Part shown: positions 4,868 through 18,193 of the stretch, piece after piece
Layout of the letters: every line of letters starts with the position of its first letter
How positions within the stretch are numbered: position 1 is the stretch's first letter
Source of the DNA: Clostridia bacterium
Lineage (GTDB): Bacteria; Bacillota; Clostridia; TANB77; RGIG9151
Reading direction: 5' to 3'
Length of the DNA: 32,000 nucleotides
Assembly (NCBI GenBank): GCA_017450465.1
Contig: JAFSUW010000004.1
Location: 5,604-37,603, forward strand
The notes under the pieces: generated by a model
Database searches by the model: none
Told to the model about the DNA's origin: nothing
What the model saw: the letters and a program-made list of their open reading frames with translations, nothing else
Translations under genes and position numbers: made by a program

Positions 4868-4892
4868 ATAATATAATATAGAAGAATATGTG

Positions 4893-4978
4893 AAAATAGC
4901 AAACTAGGTGAAAGCCTAGGACGCAAAGCTTTAGAGGCTAAGATAACTTACGTTATTATGCCAGTCGAGTTGCCCATA
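4893..4978 (+). promoter_or_regulatory. c-di-GMP-I (GEMM-I) riboswitch aptamer
   Basis: AAAUAGCAAAC-[CUAGGU-GAAA-GCCUAG]-GACGCAAAGC...GGCUAAG...[GAUAAC-UUAC-GUUAUU]-AUGCC-AGUCGAGUUGCC. It shows the conserved GCAAAC and GGACGCAAAGC blocks, a GNRA (GAAA) tetraloop on P1a, a CUAAG/UAUG tetraloop-receptor-like motif in P2, and the 3' ...GUUGCC closing strand. Confidence 0.85.
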
Positions 4979-4992
4979 AATAGAAGCATTTT

Positions 4993-5022
4993 AAATCTCG
5001 ATTGGATAATCGAGATTTTTTG
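4993..5022 (+). terminator. intrinsic terminator (riboswitch expression platform)
   Basis: Perfect 11-bp stem AAATCTCGATT (4993-5003) / AATCGAGATTT (5008-5018), loop GGAT, then a T-run. Confidence 0.8.
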
Positions 5023-5197: not shown

Positions 5198-8100
5198 ATG
5201 AAGAAAAAATGGGTTGTCTTGTTAATATTTTTACTGGCTTTATTTATAAAGCCCTATTTAGATATGACTTTTAAAGGAGATAGCGAAATCCTTTCTAATT
5301 ATACATATGCATATGATAGAAATAATCCTTGTGCAAATTGTACTAACGGAAATCATACATCATGTGTGGCTAAAACAACATATAGTTGTGGTACGAAAAA
5401 ATGTTGTTGCGGTAAAAAGGTTGTAGAGGGTAACCATACTTATAGTGTTGCCCCTACTAGTGATGGCTATCATGTTTTCTACTGTAATATATGTGGTGGT
5501 GAAACACAAGGTCTTTCTTATGAAGAACACACAGATGGTGTAAATACATTCTATTCAGGAAATTGGAGACCAGGTACAGTTTGTATAATATGTGGTTACC
5601 AATCTTCGGGAGGTACAAGTGGAAGTTCAAGTTCAAGTACGCCAACTCCAACGTCAAATCCACCAACTCCAACACCAGACCCAACACCAACAACGACAAC
5701 GTTAACAGTAAATCCTAATGGTGAAGTATGGAATGATAGCACAAGTTCACAAACTTTTACAGGTACTACGGGAAGCACAAAATCATTAAGTAATCCAACT
5801 GTATCAGTTTCTGCAATATCTGTAAGTTATAATGGTAATGGAGGTTCAGTATCAGGTGGTACAACCACAGCACATAAAACATTTAGCCATTGGATGCATA
5901 GTGGTGGAGGAAGTTTAAGTGGTAGTACTTATACATATGGTTCATCTGATGGTATGGCAATTGCGATTTATAGTAATGGTACAGTAACTCTTGCAAATGC
6001 TTCAAGAGATGGATATACATTTGATGGTTGGTATACAGCGTCTAGCGGTGGAACATATGTTGGTGGAGCAGGAAGTTCATATTCACCAAGTAATTCAATA
6101 ACTTTGTATGCACACTGGACAACTGTTCCTCAAGGAACTGGAACATCAACATTAACAGTAATAACTGGAGCAGTTAGTAATACATATACACAGGCAGTTG
6201 GAACGACAAAAACAATATCGAATAATCTAACAAAACCGGGTTATACAGTAACATTTGATGGTAATGGAGGAACACCAGCAGTAAGTTCTTTGAGTAATTA
6301 TTTGATTGGTAGCTATACATTAACAGGTGGTGGCTCATATAATGGTTCGACATATACATTTGGCACTAATGATGGAACTTTAACTGCATTTTATGGTAGT
6401 AGGAGTTCAATAGTATTACCGGATGCATATAGAAGTGGATATGAACTTGTTGGGTGGTATGAAAGCAATCCGTCCAATGCATCTAACGCTAGACCTGGGC
6501 GAGCAATTTCTCCGTCAGAAAATTATACTCTCCATGCATGTTGGATAGAAAATTCTAATCCAGAATCTACTCCAGGTGGTACAACTCCAACTTCATATAC
6601 TTTAACGGTAAATCCAAATGGTGGAACATGGAGTGGCTCTTCAAGTACGCAAACATTTACAGGGTATACTGGTAACACTAAAACTGGCTTAACAGCACCA
6701 ACAAAGTCTGGCTCATGCACAGTAACACTTAATGTAAATGGAGGTAATAGTATATCTCCAAGTTCTTACACATCATCATATGTAGGAAGCTGGAGCCGAT
6801 CGGGTGGAGGCTCTTTAAGTGGTACAACATATACATATGGTTCATCAGATGGTACATTAACGGGTTATTATGAGTATAATACAGTAACATTGCCAACTCC
6901 AACTAGAAGTAATTATAAATTTGTTGGTTGGTATACAGCAGCAGAAGGTGGTACAAGTGTTAGTAACCCATATCGTCCAACGGGTAATATAACGCTCTAT
7001 GCACGTTGGACTCCAAATAGTGTTTCTACATCTACCTTAACAGTAAATCCAAATGGCGGAACATGGAATGGAAGTACGGCGTCTAATACATATACGCAGC
7101 AAGTAAACTCTACGATGACAATTGCAAATCCAACTATTAGTAATTATGTAGTAACGTTTAATGAAAATGGTGGACGAATTATAGGAGATAATGTAGGAGA
7201 AGTAAATAGAAGATTCCTTAATTGGACAAATACAGGCTATAAAGGGTTAAATGGTACAACGTATACATTTGGTTCAACTAATGGAACAATAACTGCAAAT
7301 TATAGTGATGGAACAATAACTTTGCCAGAAGCAACAAGATCAGGATATATACTTACTGGTTGGTACACAGCATCTAGTGGTGGAACGAAGTTTGGTAATG
7401 CTGGTGTAAGCTATCCAGTTACAAGTAATCTTACTTTATATGCACAATGGACAGCAGGTACATCAAGCTTAGTAGTAAATCCAAATGGAGGTACATGGAG
7501 AGGTTCAAAAGAAGCACAAACTATATATGGAACTTATGATACGTCTGTAACAATAGAAGATCCTGTACCGCCTAATGGTTATGGAGTAACATTTGATGCA
7601 ATGGGTGGAAGTTGTGTAGATAGTTATAAAGTTCAGAATGTTACATTTAAAACCTGGCAAAAAAATGGTTCTGGTTTTATGGGATCAGGATATTATATAT
7701 ATGGTTCATCATCTGGTTCTATTACAGCGGTATATAATAGATATGCAGTTATATTGCCAGATGCAAGTTATGCAGGAAAGAAACTTGTTGGTTGGTACAC
7801 AACTCCTACTTATGAAAATAAAGTAGGTGATGCTGGAGAAGCTTATGTACCAACTAGCACTACAACACTTTATGCAAAATGGAGTGATAATTTATTAATT
7901 GCTAATGTAGATGGCCCAAACCCTAATATAATAGGTAAAAATGGTGTAATAACTTATCAAATTACATTAACAGATCCAACAGCTACAATTGATAAATCAA
8001 AAATTTATGTAACACCATTTGATTCATCAGTAAGCATAACAGAATATACATATGGTTATGGATATTCAACAACTCCGAGTGGAGTACAAGTTGTTGTAAA

Positions 8101-8899
8101 TGTAAGTGATATAGATCCAGGAACAGGAAATGTTACTGTAACAATTACAAACAATAATACTTTGGTTGAAGGAAAGTATGCACTAGTTATAGGTTCAGGT
8201 GCATTTACTAGTGGTGGAATTTCTACAAATCAAGAGGTATGTAGTCCATTCTTAGTAAATACTACATTAAAAGGTTCTATAAGATATAGCACTACTTCTC
8301 CAACAAAAGGTAGTATAGTTGCGACATTTGTGCCAAATTATGAAATATATGAAGGATTAAAAACTATTTGGCTAAGTGGTCAAACAGGTTTTAGTCATAT
8401 ATTTACTGAAAATGGTACTTATACATTCCAAGCTGTAGATTCACTTGGAAATACTGCAAACTTTACAGCGACAGTAGACTGGATTGTAAAGAATCGTAGT
8501 GCAGTATCGATGGACTATGATGTATTAGTGGGTGGAACGATATTCCCTAAAGTAATGATAAAAACAAATAAAAGTTTTAGACTTAATCAATCAAAGCCAG
8601 TAGAATTCACCATTAAAAATGGTAGTGGTACAGATGTTACAAATAGTGCAAGTGTAACAGTATTATCAATTAGAGAGTATTATGGAGATACCGAGATAAC
8701 TGATTTGTCTACTACTTTCCCACCAGGTACGTATCTACTTACTGTTGCGGTTGGAAAGGTATTTACTGTTCCAAGTACGACATATACTGTTTCACTTAGT
8801 AAGGTAAATATAATAAATGCAACGACGGCAGAAGCTATAGAGATAGAAGGTTTAAATAGTATAAGAGCTACAACATATGCATTACTAAACTTAGACTAA
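5198..8899 (+). CDS. giant secreted/surface protein: signal-anchor, Cys-rich head, Pro/Thr linker, 5 super-repeats with Listeria-Bacteroides (InlB B-repeat, Flg_new) type modules, C-terminal Ig-like modules
   Basis: The ORF is open from 5147, but GGGAGG (5185-5190) sits 7 nt before ATG-5198 (MKKKWVVLLIFLLALFIKP). Recurrent ...GY.F.GWYT...GG......Y.P....TLYA.WT signature. ENGTYTFQAVDSLGNTANFTATVDWI-type Ig-like module near the C-terminus. Confidence 0.85.
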   Translation: MKKKWVVLLIFLLALFIKPYLDMTFKGDSEILSNYTYAYDRNNPCANCTNGNHTSCVAKTTYSCGTKKCCCGKKVVEGNHTYSVAPTSDGYHVFYCNICGGETQGLSYEEHTDGVNTFYSGNWRPGTVCIICGYQSSGGTSGSSSSSTPTPTSNPPTPTPDPTPTTTTLTVNPNGEVWNDSTSSQTFTGTTGSTKSLSNPTVSVSAISVSYNGNGGSVSGGTTTAHKTFSHWMHSGGGSLSGSTYTYGSSDGMAIAIYSNGTVTLANASRDGYTFDGWYTASSGGTYVGGAGSSYSPSNSITLYAHWTTVPQGTGTSTLTVITGAVSNTYTQAVGTTKTISNNLTKPGYTVTFDGNGGTPAVSSLSNYLIGSYTLTGGGSYNGSTYTFGTNDGTLTAFYGSRSSIVLPDAYRSGYELVGWYESNPSNASNARPGRAISPSENYTLHACWIENSNPESTPGGTTPTSYTLTVNPNGGTWSGSSSTQTFTGYTGNTKTGLTAPTKSGSCTVTLNVNGGNSISPSSYTSSYVGSWSRSGGGSLSGTTYTYGSSDGTLTGYYEYNTVTLPTPTRSNYKFVGWYTAAEGGTSVSNPYRPTGNITLYARWTPNSVSTSTLTVNPNGGTWNGSTASNTYTQQVNSTMTIANPTISNYVVTFNENGGRIIGDNVGEVNRRFLNWTNTGYKGLNGTTYTFGSTNGTITANYSDGTITLPEATRSGYILTGWYTASSGGTKFGNAGVSYPVTSNLTLYAQWTAGTSSLVVNPNGGTWRGSKEAQTIYGTYDTSVTIEDPVPPNGYGVTFDAMGGSCVDSYKVQNVTFKTWQKNGSGFMGSGYYIYGSSSGSITAVYNRYAVILPDASYAGKKLVGWYTTPTYENKVGDAGEAYVPTSTTTLYAKWSDNLLIANVDGPNPNIIGKNGVITYQITLTDPTATIDKSKIYVTPFDSSVSITEYTYGYGYSTTPSGVQVVVNVSDIDPGTGNVTVTITNNNTLVEGKYALVIGSGAFTSGGISTNQEVCSPFLVNTTLKGSIRYSTTSPTKGSIVATFVPNYEIYEGLKTIWLSGQTGFSHIFTENGTYTFQAVDSLGNTANFTATVDWIVKNRSAVSMDYDVLVGGTIFPKVMIKTNKSFRLNQSKPVEFTIKNGSGTDVTNSASVTVLSIREYYGDTEITDLSTTFPPGTYLLTVAVGKVFTVPSTTYTVSLSKVNIINATTAEAIEIEGLNSIRATTYALLNLD
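5702..7882 (+). repeat. five in-frame ~138-150-aa super-repeats inside the first giant gene (unit starts 5702, 6152, 6602, 7037, 7469)
   Basis: Each unit opens with LTVNPNGGTW.GS...QT[FY]T (unit 2 degenerate: LTVITGA) and ends with GY.[FL].GWYT..(S)GG...TLYA.W. The DNA copies are diverged. Confidence 0.85.
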
Positions 8900-8913
8900 A
8901 GGGGGGATAATTA

Positions 8914-11900
8914 GTGAAGAAAAGATATCTAATATTTTTAGCATTTCTATTAGTCTTATTTATAAAACCACTAATGGACATTAATTATTCTGGAGAAGGG
9001 GTACTTACAAATTATACATACGCATATAGTGGTAGTAATCCTTGCCTTACTTGTCAACAAGGTAATCATGCAAGTTGCCCATATTTAGCAACATATGCAT
9101 GTGGTGTAAAACATTGTTGTGAAGGTTTAAATGTAGCTTCGAATACTGTAGTAAATCATACTTATACAAATATAACTTCAACACATCACTATGTTGTATG
9201 TACTTATTGTGGTACAAATAGTCAAGAATATCATAATGATAATATAACATATAGAACAGGTGCAGATTTTACAGCATGGTGGCAACCAGGAACTACTTGT
9301 GCAATGTGTGGATATACATGTCAAGGATCTGGTTCTAGTGGTGGAGGTACTACAGTACACACTCATAATTATACAAACTATGTAAGTAAAGATAGCACAA
9401 ATCACTTTATATATTGCTCATGTGGAGCATATATATTAGAACATCATGACTTATGGACTGTAGGATATGTAACAAAATGTAGCAAATGTGATTATGTAGA
9501 TAGAAGCACACCAGATCCAGGAACTGGTTCTAATCATACACACATTTATGCAATATATGAAGACTATAATAGTACATATCATAAAGTAAGTTGTACTGCA
9601 CTAGATGCGTCGAAATACGAGGAACATACGTGGATACCATGTTGTGCAAATGGTCAACAATGTGGTGCTTGTGGACGTAAAAATCATACTAATTGTCATC
9701 AACATAGTTATACATATAGGTATGTAGAAATTAATAACACAAGTCACTACGCATACTGTAGTTGCGGTGCTTCTATAACAGAGAATCATGATATGACATA
9801 TTGTTGTGCAAATGGTAATTACTGTACGAAATGCGGACATAAAGACCATAAGTCAGAACCTGCAATACACACACATAATTTTACAGCACGTTATGTTTCA
9901 ATAAGCGCTACAAAGCATGATTCGTATTGTGTGTGTGGCGTAAAGAAAGATGGTGGAGATAATCATAACTTAGTAGCATGTGACTGTGGCAAGTCGGGTG
10001 CAAAGAAATGTTCATATAATTGTGGTTATAGAGATCATACGTGTCATTATCATAGTTACACAAGTTATGCGACATTAAATACAACAAATCATAAAAAAGT
10101 ATGTTCATGTGGTGATTATATAACAGAACCACATGATCTTATAACACTTACATGTGGTTATAAATATTGTACAAAGTGTACTTATACATCTGGTTCACAT
10201 AGTTATACAGACCACTATGTAAGTTATAGTTCATCTAGCCACTATGCTTATTGTTCATGTGGTGCAAATACTTCACAATCACATAGTTTAACTTCGTTAT
10301 CTGGTTGTGGTATATCAAAATGTAGTAAAAACTGTGGTTATACAACTGGATCGCATAAATATACGACATATACAAATAATGGTGATAGTGGGCATACAAA
10401 GACATGTGCTTGTGGTCAGTCGTCTATATCTGAAGCACATTCGCTAACAGTTTATTCATGTGGATATAAGTATTGTACTTTATGTACCTATACCTCTGGT
10501 TCGCATAGATATGTAAGTAGATATGAGCAGGTAAATGAAAATGTTCATAAGTCTTATTGTTTCTGTGGTGCGTATATTTCTGAATCGCACACATGGGAGA
10601 CTTGCTGTTATAACGGCAAAAAATGTACATATTGCGGTTATAAAGACCATGATGATGAGCATGTATGTTCGTATAACTACGCTTATGAATTCTATAGTAT
10701 GACTAAACATAAAGCTTTTTGTAGATGTGGCAACTACATTTTAGTTGATCACACTTGGACACAGTGTTGTGCAAATGGGCAAAAATGTGTATATTGTGGA
10801 GTAAAAGACCATGGCTCATGTGAGGTATCACATACGCATTCATGGCGATATGAAAACTATGATGATGAAACCAACCATAAGATGATATGTACAAATGCTT
10901 TGTGTGGAATAGTTCAGCTTGAAAATCATACATTTAACAGTAGTAATGTATGTACAAAATGTGGCTATACAAAAGCAACAGAGGCAGAGTGCACACATAA
11001 CTATAGCTATGAAAATTATGGTAATGCAGATGACCATAAGGTATCATGTACGATATGTTCAAAAGATTTAGGTACAGAGCAGCACGTAATGGTATATTGT
11101 TGTCTTGCAGGGTTAAAGTGTAGCAAGTGTGGATATAAAGACCATGCATCGGATGTTTTGTCACATGTCCATAACTATACAGCAGCATATTTAATAAAAA
11201 ATGATACGGTTCATGAAGCATATTGTATATGTAACCAGTATATAGAAGAAAACCATACATTTTCAGGGATAAGATGTACAAAATGTGGTTATGAAAAGAA
11301 CTTTACACCAGGAATTGCTGGTGGAGATCCAAATAGTCCTATAATACCTGAAGGATCGGTACCTGTAAAACCTGATCCTGATACAGGTGGTTGGATTGTA
11401 GCAGATACTACAGATCCAGAATGGTATGATTACTATAATCAAAAATGGGCAAATATTACACTTCGTGATGGACTTGTAATAGATGGAGCTAATGCTTCTG
11501 TAACTACATTAGATGGATTAGTAGGTAAAAAGGTACTTTCTATGGGTTCAATGTTTGTTTGGATACCTCGTTTTACATATAAAAATAATGGCAACGGAAA
11601 TGTAAGCATATACTTTAGTAATGGTACAAACGATTATACATCAAACTATTATGTTGCATCTCCTGCGTTCTTCTATGGTGAATATTTAGGTGGAGATCCA
11701 GGGGCCGAGTCGAGTTATGTAGATAGAAATGGAACTAATAATGAACTTGCGGGTATATGGGTTGCTAAATATATGGCAAGCAATACAGGAAGCCATATAG
11801 ATGTAAAACCATCCAAAAATGTTTATACATCTGATGTTAATACATTATTTACACTTGCAAAAAATATGGCATTAGACAGTAGTTATGGACTAACTAGTGG

Positions 11901-12921
11901 TGCAAACTCTCATATGATGAAAGCAAGCGAATGGTCGGCTATAGAATTTTTAGCAGCAGGTGCAGGACAAATTCCATTTATAAATAACAAACAGGTAACA
12001 GGTTATGCAAGTAATGGTTTAAGTGCAAATACAACTGACCCAAGTTATGTATGGGATTCAGAACTTGGTGTATTTGGAAGCACAACATATAATAAGACAG
12101 GTATATTTGATTTAAGTGGTACAACAAAAGAATATCTAGCAAGCTTCATAACAGTTGCAGGAAATGATTTAATTAATGGTGCAATTACCGAAACTACGAA
12201 TAGAAAAGACGTAGATAGGTTAGATGCAAGTTCTGCTGAAGCTGTTGGAATAGTGCCTCTTATAAGATATAAACTAGGTATAGCTGATGTTAAGAATTGG
12301 TGCGAAGATGCATTTATAACCCCAAGTACAATGCTTAGCGTCGTAAATAGAGGTGGAGAATATAATCAAGGTGCGCAAGCTGGTTTATTTGCACTAGATG
12401 GTCAAGATGGAAATTCACCTTTAGGATTTAGGCCGGTATTACTTGTATTTGAACTTGCCGATGAAGATGATGTTGCACTTATAGAGTCAGAAGTTACAGT
12501 AATGGCTGGTGGTAGTGCAATTATAAATGTAGACTTTAAGTCAAGTGAAACGTGGAGTTTTGGTAAGACTTTAGGTCAGGTATTTACAGCTGATGGTTCG
12601 GGTAAGAGAGTAATATCACTTTATACAGTAGAAACAGAGGGTACATCAGCAAAGAACTACAATATAAATGCTTCGATTGTAGGAATAGTGAAAAACGGTA
12701 CGGCGATGACGACTTCGCAAATAAACGCAATAGGTTCTTCAACCACTATGGATGCGGGAAGTTATCAGATAAAAGTATCTATAGGTGGAAGTGGAGTATT
12801 TACAGGTAGTAAAAAATATAATGTAGTGCTAGAGGAGCTAAACTTAAAACATGGCTCGAATGACATACATATTCCTGGTATTAGTTATAATGTAGTAAAA
12901 ATAAATTGTATATCAATGTAG
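8914..12921 (+). CDS. giant secreted/surface protein: signal-anchor, Cys-rich head, 13 Cys/His-rich modules, FGE-sulfatase / C-type-lectin-like domain, Ig-like tail
   Basis: GTG start 14 nt after the upstream stop, with AGGGGGG RBS, so co-transcribed. N-terminus MKKRYLIFLAFLLVLFIKP is homologous to the first protein. Confidence 0.85.
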   Translation: MKKRYLIFLAFLLVLFIKPLMDINYSGEGVLTNYTYAYSGSNPCLTCQQGNHASCPYLATYACGVKHCCEGLNVASNTVVNHTYTNITSTHHYVVCTYCGTNSQEYHNDNITYRTGADFTAWWQPGTTCAMCGYTCQGSGSSGGGTTVHTHNYTNYVSKDSTNHFIYCSCGAYILEHHDLWTVGYVTKCSKCDYVDRSTPDPGTGSNHTHIYAIYEDYNSTYHKVSCTALDASKYEEHTWIPCCANGQQCGACGRKNHTNCHQHSYTYRYVEINNTSHYAYCSCGASITENHDMTYCCANGNYCTKCGHKDHKSEPAIHTHNFTARYVSISATKHDSYCVCGVKKDGGDNHNLVACDCGKSGAKKCSYNCGYRDHTCHYHSYTSYATLNTTNHKKVCSCGDYITEPHDLITLTCGYKYCTKCTYTSGSHSYTDHYVSYSSSSHYAYCSCGANTSQSHSLTSLSGCGISKCSKNCGYTTGSHKYTTYTNNGDSGHTKTCACGQSSISEAHSLTVYSCGYKYCTLCTYTSGSHRYVSRYEQVNENVHKSYCFCGAYISESHTWETCCYNGKKCTYCGYKDHDDEHVCSYNYAYEFYSMTKHKAFCRCGNYILVDHTWTQCCANGQKCVYCGVKDHGSCEVSHTHSWRYENYDDETNHKMICTNALCGIVQLENHTFNSSNVCTKCGYTKATEAECTHNYSYENYGNADDHKVSCTICSKDLGTEQHVMVYCCLAGLKCSKCGYKDHASDVLSHVHNYTAAYLIKNDTVHEAYCICNQYIEENHTFSGIRCTKCGYEKNFTPGIAGGDPNSPIIPEGSVPVKPDPDTGGWIVADTTDPEWYDYYNQKWANITLRDGLVIDGANASVTTLDGLVGKKVLSMGSMFVWIPRFTYKNNGNGNVSIYFSNGTNDYTSNYYVASPAFFYGEYLGGDPGAESSYVDRNGTNNELAGIWVAKYMASNTGSHIDVKPSKNVYTSDVNTLFTLAKNMALDSSYGLTSGANSHMMKASEWSAIEFLAAGAGQIPFINNKQVTGYASNGLSANTTDPSYVWDSELGVFGSTTYNKTGIFDLSGTTKEYLASFITVAGNDLINGAITETTNRKDVDRLDASSAEAVGIVPLIRYKLGIADVKNWCEDAFITPSTMLSVVNRGGEYNQGAQAGLFALDGQDGNSPLGFRPVLLVFELADEDDVALIESEVTVMAGGSAIINVDFKSSETWSFGKTLGQVFTADGSGKRVISLYTVETEGTSAKNYNINASIVGIVKNGTAMTTSQINAIGSSTTMDAGSYQIKVSIGGSGVFTGSKKYNVVLEELNLKHGSNDIHIPGISYNVVKINCISM
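9157..11292 (+). repeat. 13 tandem in-frame Cys/His-rich modules (~50-60 aa each)
   Basis: Unit pattern: H-x-[HY]-x-Y-x(6-9)-H-x(2,3)-C-x-C-G-x(5,6)-H-x(3-8)-(C-C-x-N-G-x2)-C-x2-C-G-[YH]-(K-D-H). Units start at protein residues 82, 149, 208, 262, 319, 378, 429, 481, 531, 583, 640, 695 and 751. Confidence 0.85.
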
Positions 12922-13183: not shown

Positions 13184-13194
13184 TAAATTAAAGC

Positions 13195-13440
13195 GTTGAT
13201 AAGAAATAGTAACTAAAATATGTTTTTAAGAGAGCTGTTGTTTGGTGCGAAGCAGTAAAACAAATTTAGTGAATACATCTTGGAGCAGAATACCGAATTA
13301 AGTAGGCTATTACGGGTGCAACCGTTATATTGTAAGAGTGTATATGCACTTGATGAGGCAAGTATTGTGAAATACTTGTAAATAGAGGTGGTACCACGTA
13401 AAAACGTCCTCGGTAAGATAAACTTACCGGGGATTTTTGT
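13195..13440 (+). promoter_or_regulatory. T-box leader, tyrosine-specific
   Basis: AGAGAG and GGTGCGAAG stem I elements. Specifier loop AGTGAA-TAC-A with the Tyr codon TAC at 13274-13276. T-box sequence AATAGAGGTGGTACCACG at 13381-13398. Terminator CCTCGGTAAG / CTTACCGGGG (13408-13432) plus T-run. Confidence 0.9.
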
Positions 13441-13455: not shown

Positions 13456-14679
13456 ATGAAGATTTATGAAGAATTAGTTGAACGTGGCTTAATTGCACAA
13501 GTTACTGATGAAGAAAAAATTAGGGAGTTAGTTAATAGTGGCAACGCGAAGTTTTATATAGGTTTTGACCCAACAGCAGATTCACTTCATGTAGGACATT
13601 TTATGGCACTATGTTTAATGAGAAGATTACAACTTGCGGGTAATAAACCAGTAGCATTAATCGGTGGTGGCACAGGATATATTGGTGATCCATCAGGCAG
13701 AACAGATATGCGTACAATGATGACACCTGAAATAATTGAACACAACTGTGCATGTTTTAAGAAACAGATGGAAAGATTTATTCATTTTGATGGTGATAAT
13801 GCTGCAATAATGGTAAATAACGCTGATTGGCTACTTAAACTTAATTACATAGAAATGTTAAGAGAAGTAGGAGCTTGTTTTTCAGTAAATAATATGCTTC
13901 GTGCAGAATGTTACAAGCAAAGAATGGAAAGAGGTTTATCATTCTTGGAATTTAACTACATGATAATGCAATCATACGATTTTTATCATTTGTTTAAGGA
14001 ATATGATTGTAATATGCAGTTTGGCGGCGATGATCAATGGTCAAATATGCTAGGTGGTACAGAACTGATTCGTAAAAAACTTGGTAAAGATGCTTTTGCG
14101 ATGACAATTACATTACTATTAAATTCTGAGGGTAAGAAGATGGGTAAAACAGCAAATGGTGCTGTATGGCTTGATCCAAATAAGACATCTCCTTTTGAGT
14201 TTTTCCAATACTGGAGGAATGTTGAAGATGCGGATGTTATAAATTGCTTAAAGATGCTTACATTTTTACCACTTGAAGAAATTAAAAAGTATGAACATTT
14301 AACAGGTAGTGAATTAAATCCAGTAAAGGAATTGCTTGCTTATGAACTTACAAGTTTAGTGCATGGTGAAGAAGAGGCAAATAAAGCACGAGAAGGGGCA
14401 AGGAGCCTATTTGTAAGTGGTGGTGATACAACTAATATGCCTACAACAAAACTTGACTCTACGGACTTTGTAGAAGACGAAATAGGGGTATTAGATTTAT
14501 TAGTAAAAACTGCTCTTGCACCATCTAAAAAAGAGGCAAGAAGACTAGTAGAGCAAGGTGGAGTAGAAGTTAATAGTGAAAAAGTTACCGATGTAAATAA
14601 AAAATTAGGTAAAGCAGATTTTGAAAAAGAAGTTATAATTAAAAAAGGCAAGAAGACTTTCCACAAAGTAACTTTATAG
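13456..14679 (+). CDS. tyrS: tyrosine--tRNA ligase
   Basis: 407 aa. HIGH-type motif HVGH, KMSKS-type motif KMGKT, C-terminal S4-like domain. Preceded by the Tyr T-box. Confidence 0.95.
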   Translation: MKIYEELVERGLIAQVTDEEKIRELVNSGNAKFYIGFDPTADSLHVGHFMALCLMRRLQLAGNKPVALIGGGTGYIGDPSGRTDMRTMMTPEIIEHNCACFKKQMERFIHFDGDNAAIMVNNADWLLKLNYIEMLREVGACFSVNNMLRAECYKQRMERGLSFLEFNYMIMQSYDFYHLFKEYDCNMQFGGDDQWSNMLGGTELIRKKLGKDAFAMTITLLLNSEGKKMGKTANGAVWLDPNKTSPFEFFQYWRNVEDADVINCLKMLTFLPLEEIKKYEHLTGSELNPVKELLAYELTSLVHGEEEANKAREGARSLFVSGGDTTNMPTTKLDSTDFVEDEIGVLDLLVKTALAPSKKEARRLVEQGGVEVNSEKVTDVNKKLGKADFEKEVIIKKGKKTFHKVTL

Positions 14680-17998: not shown

Positions 17999-18193
17999 AG
18001 TAAAAGACAATAAATAACGTTCACTGGGCTTCGCTTGATCATTTCTTGCCAAAACGATTGCCGGTCGCTCACACAAGACGTCCTTGTCTTGTCTTCGCTC
18101 AAAAAAACATCCTGTTTTTTTGTCCGGCAAAAACTGTTTTGGAGAAATGTCAAACTCTCACCCAATGTTCACTTATATTTATTGTCTTTTGCT
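17999..18193. repeat. ~195-bp inverted-repeat-bounded, rod-folding intergenic element (MITE-like or structured RNA)
   Basis: 18-nt terminal inverted repeat AG[T/C]AAAAGACAATAAATA (17999-18016 vs 18176-18193, 17/18). Nested helices: 18025-28/18161-64, 18049-55/18136-42, 18058-64/18124-30. Internal A9/T9-type hairpin at 18101-18121. Confidence 0.6.

Follow-up and report, generated by a model that had tools for sequence, protein, structure and literature searches.

Bacterial surface stalks are normally built of Ig-like or G5/Rib-type domains, and zinc ligated by Cys is normally found inside the cell. The closest described systems to the protein discussed here are two domains of the M64 IgA protease of Thomasclavelia ramosa, described in 2025 as ZBD1 and ZBD2 (named CTD2 and CTD4 in PMC12415215), for which sites of two His and two Cys, or of three Cys and one His, are predicted at the sheet interfaces, stapling consecutive sheets (PMC12237041; PMC12415215). 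CTD2 is a fully extended rod by small-angle X-ray scattering, and "an uncharacterized periscope domain fold" was proposed for it (PMC12415215). Here we report on p2, a gene in a 32,000-nucleotide stretch of an uncultured Clostridia bacterium (hereafter the window; positions 5,604 to 37,603 of contig JAFSUW010000004.1, assembly GCA_017450465.1), whose product carries 13 tandem Cys/His modules. We consider it likely that this product is a metal-stapled stalk displaying a binding head, in which Cys/His sites pin each small sheet to the next. The kind of module is already known, as a prediction, from one IgA protease with five sheets; new here are its short and eight-ligand variants, the ligand rules, the size and host range of the family, a head resembling the formylglycine-generating enzyme (FGE) sulfatase family that is shared with pilin-like proteins, and a conserved cyclic di-GMP (c-di-GMP) riboswitch. 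The array is a large, homotypic and well-conserved case of a stalk module that is widespread, poorly annotated and probably zinc-stapled and that was first noted in 2025.

A preliminary description, based on the letters of the window, had placed the 13 modules at 9157-11292 (residues 82-793). All are recovered by a hidden Markov model (HMM) built from them (domain E 9e-14 to 3e-24, the model being self-trained), and only a few residues had been clipped at each end (Table 1). The array is rich in Cys (10%), His (8%) and Tyr (10%), with 128 Cys+His in 720 residues, whereas the 535 residues after it have two Cys and five His. Module residue numbers below (H3, H17, C21 and so on) are those of unit 4, while the family profile has its own numbering (H16, C20 and so on). 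H17, C21, H31, C43 and C46 are invariant in the 13 modules, and H3, Y9 and C23 nearly so. The number of His per module (3-6) is as described earlier; that of Cys ranges from 4 to 8, not from 4 to 6. The three subtypes that had been proposed exist, with unit numbers that were one too low: units 3, 4, 9, 10 and 12 are of the CC-x-NG type, units 6-8 of the CGYxYC type and units 2, 11 and 13 of the single CxxC type. Unit 5 represents a C-x-C-G variant.

The only close relative, P0001 from a Logan assembly, is an orthologue that is 43% identical to p2 over its full length, and the HMM of the window units finds 13 modules in it (E 1e-6 to 5e-19); the HMM also matches units in P0002, an unrelated protein of 934 aa. 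No relative was found among the GTDB species representatives with the full p2 protein as query. Pairwise DNA identity between the window modules is 53-72% and Tandem Repeats Finder detected no array in the window DNA, and therefore the copies are old; the pair singled out before as about three-quarters identical is 67% identical. Cys/His positions of the array are identical in P0001 in 113 of 126 cases (90%), other positions in 201 of 574 (35%). Judged from this comparison, the ligand residues are under strong purifying selection, in keeping with the earlier argument for selection on the array as opposed to recent slippage.

Ligand statistics were compiled from 1,181 aligned module matches in 151 proteins, comprising 785 full modules and, from the 150 proteins other than p2, 521 intervals from H30 to the next H3. 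In the full modules, profile positions H3, H16, C20, C22, H30, C42 and C45 are 98-100% conserved; where H3 or H30 is replaced, which is rare, it is by Cys. The number of Cys+His in the 521 intervals is 4 in 73%, 5 in 17%, 3 in 2%, 6-7 in under 2% and 8 in 4%; along the p2 array, counted from H31 to the next H3, it is 5, 4, 8, 8, 8, 4, 4, 4, 7, 8, 4 and 7. The fourth ligand, X, is His in 192 and Cys in 86 cases and stands 4, 6 or 10 residues ahead of the second knuckle. Without X, a fourth ligand occurs exactly two residues before the next H3 (His in 77 cases, Cys in 15); specifically, the following module starts with H-x-H in 72% of cases without X vs 7% with X (odds ratio 34, p 1e-44), and this complementarity holds in 11 of 11 cases in the p2 product and P0001. 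Since the counts are four or eight, His and Cys interchange, the fourth ligand is complementary and odd Cys numbers per unit are common, we infer that the Cys/His tetrads are four-ligand metal sites, most likely for Zn2+, and not disulfides.

The following layout is proposed. Each module would be made of two small antiparallel sheets of three strands each, lying end to end, so that the array would have 26 sheets, and a tetrahedral Cys/His site, most likely occupied by Zn2+, would staple every sheet to the next. Two ligands per site would come from the knuckle Cys pair (C-x-C or C-x2-C) at the base of sheet k+1, the third would be a His at the sheet junction (H3 or H31) and the fourth a His or Cys from sheet k (H17, or the variable X located 4-10 residues before the second knuckle); where X is missing, H1 of an H-x-H start would substitute. 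With up-down-up sheets, the knuckle at the base would adjoin the top of the preceding sheet, where H17/X and the junction His would sit. It follows from such stapling that first modules should need H1 and that last modules should not need X, and the statistics from both array ends agree: H1 is present in 44% of first modules vs 7% of internal modules following X, and X in 45% of last modules vs 77% internally (p 1e-18), with the last units of the p2 product, P0001 and P0152 all being without X. Our first site assignment (H3, H17, C21 and C23 in one site; H31, X, C43 and C46 in the other) was dropped because of these array-end statistics and since H17 and C21 are on the same strand at a distance of four residues and, by geometric reasoning from the DSSP string of the structural model described below, would not reach the same ion. 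In the CC-x-NG...KDH subtype, four more ligands would form one extra site, which is probable since this subtype has eight ligands where others have four. By this layout the array probably holds about 30 metal ions and, extrapolating from ZBD1, the stalk would form a rigid rod of some 60 nm that would hold the C-terminal, non-enzymatic FGE-sulfatase-like binding head away from the cell.

AlphaFold2 (AF2) was applied to residues 262-428 (three units) with an alignment of 34 rows, each spanning three units. It predicted an all-beta structure in which every unit has five short strands, with a mean predicted local distance difference test score (pLDDT) of 90.9; C-x-C and C-x2-C are at hairpin turns and confidence dips only in the inter-unit linkers. 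The predicted template modelling score is 0.44, as expected of an elongated chain.

With respect to the family, a profile of 30 units was searched against 1.84 billion representative proteins, and 2,236 protein clusters were matched at E<=1e-3, 559 at E<=1e-10 and 54 at E<=1e-30; many members have 10-31 matched stretches each. Pfam companion domains in 67 of the best members include cohesin, dockerin, BspA-type LRR, Listeria-Bacteroides repeat (Flg_new), SLH, subtilase, matrixin (M10), PPC and Big_2, and because of these companions we regard the family as one of surface or secreted proteins. Its members are mostly large and come from anaerobic Firmicutes. DUF7836 (PF25206; 5 of the 67 proteins, best E 2e-10) and HEWD (PF20576; 2 of the 67, best E 2.6e-6) cover parts of the module; both are uncharacterised Pfam entries, no mention of which was found in the literature, and NCBIfam has no model for the module. 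Even at E<=10, neither entry matches p2 as a whole, its array or any single unit. With the complete protein, the array, individual units or unit profiles as query, sequence searches of Pfam, NCBIfam and PDB likewise gave nothing significant, and for the complete protein and individual units this held up to E<=10. Weak matches to Fur, eL42, PKC C1 and ribbon families (ribbon E 0.06 or worse) were judged to be local knuckle similarity. Hence the view that the modules belong to no named family is correct for the window units, which have no Pfam, NCBIfam or PDB match at E<=10, and not supported for the family, with its 2,236 clusters, partial DUF7836/HEWD coverage and ZBD1/ZBD2 described in 2025; the earlier interpretation is partly supported, the module being less singular than it assumed.

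One peptide pattern, taken from the form of the module that is commonest (the "long" form), is present in at least 506 confirmed loci among the GTDB species representatives, the hosts being nearly all of gut or rumen: Lachnospiraceae, Oscillospiraceae, Ruminococcaceae, Acutalibacteraceae, Sellimonas, Bacilli, Collinsella, Slackia, Eggerthellaceae, Selenomonadaceae, Treponemataceae and Mycoplasmoidaceae. Profile-profile comparison by hhalign shows the window units to be homologous to the long form (probability 96.9%, E 1.4e-10); theirs is a short form, in which the second sheet is truncated. The CC-x-NG-x2-C-x2-CG-x-KDH-x-C-H subtype occurs, among the 151 proteins, only in the p2 product, P0001 and P0030. 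Some members (P0007, P0029 and others) have only 28-aa half-modules (H-x13-H-x3-C-x2-C-x7), 17 or more in a row. Pure half-module runs occur and 159 of the 1,181 matches are first halves only, and for these reasons the half-module, a single sheet with its knuckle, is taken as the true evolutionary unit.

The long-form profile matches one entry of solved structure over the whole module, residues 1074-1130 of 9qa6_A ("IgA protease", E 0.0021). The 9qa6 construct covers A31-I1166 of the T. ramosa protease, and ZBD2 is G1101-T1171 (PMC12237041; PMC12415215); as the construct starts at A31, the match falls in ZBD2. Neither a first-half-only profile nor a single long-form sequence recovered 9qa6, and matches of the long-form profile to C2H2 zinc fingers and antibodies were rejected as linker-like or low-complexity similarity. 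The matches suggest, by way of the long form and with a weak last step, that the window modules are homologous to the ZBD1/ZBD2 (CTD2/CTD4) rods. Both p2 and the IgA protease are extracellular Firmicute proteins that would share small three-stranded sheets set end to end, tetrahedral sites at the sheet interfaces, an absence of disulfides, an extended rod shape and a stalk ("periscope") role, and zinc is predicted in both. They differ in that the IgA protease has three plus two sheets, split by an Ig-like barrel near a C-terminal sortase anchor, while the 26 predicted sheets of p2 follow its N-terminal leader uninterrupted; its ZBDs were described without the CC-x-NG...KDH subtype, which in p2 carries four extra ligands; and its cargo is a protease where that of p2 is an FGE-like head.

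Other stalk domains, i.e. SasG/Aap G5-E, Rib and SHIRT, are similarly elongated, mostly of single-layer beta structure, and arranged in tandem arrays of varying copy number between anchor and head. The zinc of Aap mediates dimerisation, and we know of no Cys and no buried metal sites in any of these domains. Classically, their repeats are near-identical in DNA, unlike the p2 copies; the periscope proteins of Whelan et al. 2021 reportedly have such near-identical tandem repeats, and variation in repeat number is said to change the stalk length. In p2 near-identical DNA repeats are lacking while the repeat number does vary between relatives. P0152 (710 aa) shares leader, head and tail with p2 and has only two modules, the counterparts of window units 12 and 13, so that relatives of the same plan have 13 (p2), 13 (P0001) and 2 (P0152) modules, these being different species and not strains. 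Such variation in length with the ends kept is the behaviour of a stalk domain.

Classical zinc ribbons and C2H2 zinc fingers, which are intracellular nucleic-acid or protein binders, have in common with the modules the Cys knuckles at beta-hairpin turns and the Cys2His2 chemistry. The module motif HTxxGxKTYTCxxCG resembles the finger linker TGEKPYxCxxCG, a source of spurious PDB matches. A zinc ribbon has one Cys4 site to which two knuckles contribute, whereas each knuckle in p2 would pair with two His (or His/Cys) and bridge consecutive sheets. A classical Cys4 ribbon is not supported, as ribbon matches are sub-threshold and three His are as conserved as four Cys; of the earlier likening to a zinc-knuckle or ribbon, the knuckle-like, putatively metal-binding mini-domains are retained and the ribbon layout of a C-x-C plus C-x2-C site is not.

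The earlier proposal of a stalk displaying a lectin-like head agrees with our reading of the C-terminal half, in which the head is a divergent FGE-sulfatase-like domain with a predicted C-type-lectin-like fold. FGE-sulfatase domains have a C-type-lectin-like fold, and FGE itself uses a catalytic Cys pair. A profile of residues 796-1335 of p2 and P0001 found about 100 homologues of 450-600 aa (P0153-P0253), most of which begin with a pilin-like segment (K-G-ITLIALVVTIVVLLILAG or GFTLVELL). Among 40 of these, 15 match Pfam N_methyl and 21 match FGE-sulfatase (PF03781) weakly (E<=0.1, best E 1.5e-5); one homologue is named "type II secretion system protein". A joint profile of the homologues matches PDB 5vf4 at E 1.2e-4 and PvdO at E 0.17, and the head motifs RGG...GFRPV and H-x-MK-x-x-EW line up with the FGE-sulfatase/SUMF1-PvdO family. 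The p2 head differs from this family in scoring under all Pfam thresholds. With a single Cys (C1130) in residues 801-1330, it lacks the catalytic pair and is no formylglycine-generating enzyme. Most homologues are heads of pilin-like proteins, while that of p2 is on a Cys/His stalk; from its sequence relatives the head is most readily understood as a binding domain with a C-type-lectin-like fold that would be mountable on either. These homologues also point to a putative family of pilin-like proteins with FGE-like heads in metagenome-assembled genomes (MAGs) of Bacilli and Clostridia. Many of them have Ala instead of Glu at +5 of the prepilin-like segment (GITLIALV...).

Several observations weigh against a metal-stapled stalk with a binding head. 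The pLDDT of 90.9 may be inflated because the AF2 alignment was built of paralogous repeats, and Foldseek of the three-unit model against PDB gave no match at E<0.1. The link from the window modules to ZBD2 is transitive with a weak last step (E 0.002), and the window units alone as query do not match 9qa6. Zinc in the ZBDs is itself a prediction in PMC12237041 and PMC12415215. Units 1, 9 and 12 of p2 are off multiples of four, and the p-values of 1e-44 and 1e-18 are inflated as the repeat instances are not phylogenetically independent. As to the two ends, the leader may be cleaved, no cell-wall sorting signal (LPXTG or other C-terminal anchor) was found in p2 and which end of the stalk faces the cell is an assumption; the head sequence itself is without any Pfam match, and AF2 of the C-terminal 540 aa, with a two-sequence alignment, gave a pLDDT of 36. 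The identity and occupancy of the metal, the exact ligand sets, the rigidity, length and anchoring of the rod and the ligand of the head are our deductions.

Among the alternatives, an extracellular Cys-rich protein with an even number of Cys in its array (72) might be expected to have disulfide-knotted repeats of the EGF or TNFR kind, binding no metal and with His structural or incidental. We regard this as very improbable given the odd Cys counts of most units (5, 7, 5, 5, 5, 5), three His that are as invariant as the Cys, the exchange of His and Cys at the fourth ligand (192 vs 86) and occasionally at H3 and H30, counts that track Cys+His tetrads instead of Cys pairs, and the hosts of the family, which are gut and rumen anaerobes. 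Moreover, in the T. ramosa IgA protease, which has 24 Cys, no disulfides were seen, and a reductant was needed for its monodispersity (PMC12237041; PMC12415215). That the gene is a pseudogene, an unexpressed relic or a MAG assembly artefact has next to no probability: apart from the metagenomic source and the GTG start nothing suggests it, and the 4-kb frame is intact with a strong ribosome-binding site, an identical protein is found on 4 contigs, the 43%-identical orthologue has the same 13-module plan, ypeB neighbour and riboswitch, and the ligand residues are under strong purifying selection.

Accepting metal sites, they could be functional, as an extracellular buffer or sensor of zinc or another metal, or as a redox or oxygen switch of stiffness and head display. 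About 30 exposed thiolate sites would oxidise or demetallate readily, the gene is under a riboswitch for a lifestyle-linked second messenger, and regulation by environmental zinc was raised for the IgA protease (PMC12415215); still, such a role is unlikely, as C2H2 or C3H sites with all ligands supplied by the protein are characteristic of structural zinc (PMC12237041; PMC12415215), the family serves as a spacer in many unrelated architectures, and no metal-homeostasis genes are present among the p2 neighbours in the window. A related and rather unlikely possibility is that the rod is extended only under anoxia with zinc and collapses on oxidation or zinc starvation, in which case display of the head would be gated by gut-lumen chemistry on top of c-di-GMP, the extra site of the CC subtype possibly being binuclear. 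The modules might also bind glycans, host proteins or extracellular DNA themselves, in the manner of zinc fingers, and not be an inert spacer. The partly conserved order of subtypes between the orthologues and the Tyr content (10% of the array) would fit, and other stalk domains, e.g. the InlB B-repeat, proved to be ligand-binding; this is nevertheless improbable in view of the near-neutral charge of the array (54 K+R vs 61 D+E, against DNA binding), the poor conservation of non-ligand positions (35%) and a module number that goes from 2 to 13 with a constant head. An extracellular electron conduit was set aside since the three sites of the related ZBD1 model lie along about 110 Å, so that the distances between them would be too long for electron tunnelling. 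We therefore retain the metal-stapled stalk as the likely reading.

The p2 product is identical to MBQ7667798.1, which is labelled "hypothetical protein" and comes from a MAG of a Clostridia bacterium. The claim that it is extracytoplasmic stands; its leader, with a hydrophobic stretch of only about 13 residues, may be the signal-anchor first proposed or a cleaved signal peptide. After the leader, a motif IKP-x-[LV]-D-[IM] (8965-8990, +; wider form [IL]-K-[PS]-[YL]-x-[DN]-[IM]-x-[YF]-[SK]) is common to p1, p2, P0001 and P0152 and could be a dedicated processing or sorting signal. The base has exactly eight Cys+His (C44, C47, H52, C55, C63, H67, C68 and C69), is kept in p1 and not in P0001, and could hold two more metal sites. 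No family match was obtained for the C-terminal domain.

The upstream paralogous gene p1 and p2 have the leader, the Cys/His base and module 1 in common (43% identity over about 140 aa), followed in p1 by a Ser/Thr/Pro linker and five Listeria-Bacteroides repeats (Flg_new, E 1.5e-38). The exact p1 sequence from 5147 was not found in the protein collection, and the real start is probably ATG 5198. The GTG of p2 is 14 nt downstream of the p1 stop codon. The base (residues 33-80), the first about 140 residues shared with p1 and the c-di-GMP riboswitch are not in the preliminary description.

The terminator hairpin of the riboswitch coexists with the folded aptamer in the minimum-free-energy fold. 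A possible antiterminator is formed by CAGUCGAG (about 4961-4968), which pairs with CUCGAUUG (4997-5004). The same riboswitch is upstream of the orthologue (74.7 bits; L001 2119-2252, with terminator, and L002 1122-1211); in L001 the layout of riboswitch and terminator is as in the window with a different hairpin sequence, p1 is absent and both elements are directly ahead of the array gene. The best explanation is that p2 encodes an exported surface protein and is co-transcribed with p1 under the c-di-GMP-I riboswitch. The C. difficile flgB operon, CD2797 and zmpI similarly have a class I aptamer followed by a terminator ahead of surface genes (PMC6200980). The genes controlled there are unrelated to p1-p2, and the likeness covers the layout and not the on/off direction; the class I switches of C. 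difficile are all "off" switches (PMC6200980).

Table 1. Features of the p1-p2 locus in window coordinates
Feature	Position	Strand	Remarks
c-di-GMP-I riboswitch aptamer, operon leader	4888..4977	+	Rfam RF01051, 71.3 bits vs gathering score 35, E 4.6e-14, full model 1-87
Terminator-like hairpin and T-run, riboswitch expression platform	4993..5018	+	11-bp stem
p1, paralogous surface-protein gene	5198..8899	+	ORF listed from 5147 (1250 aa); ATG 5198 after GGGAGG site
Ribosome-binding site of p2, AGGGGGG	8900..8906	+	Read in sequence; 7 nt ahead of GTG 8914, 1 nt past p1 stop codon
p2, Cys/His-array surface protein gene	8914..12921	+	GTG start, 1335 aa
N-terminal leader MKKRYLIFLAFLLVLFIKPLMD	8914..8976	+	Sec-type signal peptide or short anchor
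N-terminal Cys/His base (residues 33-80)	9010..9153	+	8 Cys+His, common to p1
Array of 13 Cys/His modules (residues 81-800)	9154..11313	+	26 predicted three-stranded sheets; modules 50-68 aa
Module 1 (residues 81-148)	9154..9357	+	Long second half
Module 2 (residues 149-207)	9358..9534	+	Single CxxC type
Module 3 (residues 208-261)	9535..9696	+	CC type; 8 ligands after H31
Module 4 (residues 262-318)	9697..9867	+	CC type; 8 ligands
Module 5 (residues 319-377)	9868..10044	+	C-x-C-G variant; 8 ligands
Module 6 (residues 378-428)	10045..10197	+	CGYKYC type; 4 ligands
Module 7 (residues 429-480)	10198..10353	+	CGxxKC type; 4 ligands
Module 8 (residues 481-530)	10354..10503	+	CGYKYC type; 4 ligands
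Module 9 (residues 531-582)	10504..10659	+	CC type; 7 ligands
Module 10 (residues 583-639)	10660..10830	+	CC type; 8 ligands; position 3 Cys instead of His
Module 11 (residues 640-693)	10831..10992	+	Single CxxC type; 4 ligands
Module 12 (residues 694-750)	10993..11163	+	CC type; 7 ligands
Module 13 (residues 751-800)	11164..11313	+	Single CxxC type, terminal
Pro/Gly-rich linker (residues 801-823)	11314..11382	+	Sequence
Head (about residues 824-1187), divergent FGE-sulfatase-like domain	11383..12474	+	One Cys only
C-terminal domain, about 150 aa	12475..12921	+	Conserved in P0001 and P0152; weakly similar to p1 tail

The neighbours of p1-p2 are ypeB, tyrS with a T-box leader, fmt, spoIVA and lgt, the GC content is about 33%, and the source organism is an uncultured, spore-forming Firmicute of gut-type Clostridia. 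The orthologue locus (L001) has the ypeB neighbour and the downstream T-box as in the window. The T-box leader (142 bits; 13187-13414, +) is ahead of tyrS (13456-14679), the same arrangement being present downstream of the orthologue in L001. A TwoAYGGAY RNA motif (18026-18162, -) between spoIVA and lgt scores 44.7 bits, barely over the Rfam gathering score of 43. Two antisense ORFs inside the array gene, of 82 aa (9601-9849, -) and 115 aa (10934-11281, -), are taken as chance ORFs opposite a conserved coding region.

The homologues are widely spread and their copy number differs, with 2 vs 13 modules behind the same leader. As a clean, homotypic example of 13 modules, p2 is well suited to testing the rod fold, and the ligand rules, i.e. 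a single site at each junction of sheets, a fourth ligand that is interchangeable and a subtype with eight ligands, point to specific mutations. In this locus such a stalk is combined with c-di-GMP control and with a head that is otherwise present on pilin-like proteins. Given a family that ranges over Clostridia, Bacilli, Coriobacteriia, Selenomonadaceae and Treponemataceae and has no fewer than 2,236 clusters, surface stalks made of many tiny sheets in a row, held together by what we infer to be metal ions, would be common among anaerobic bacteria of gut and rumen.

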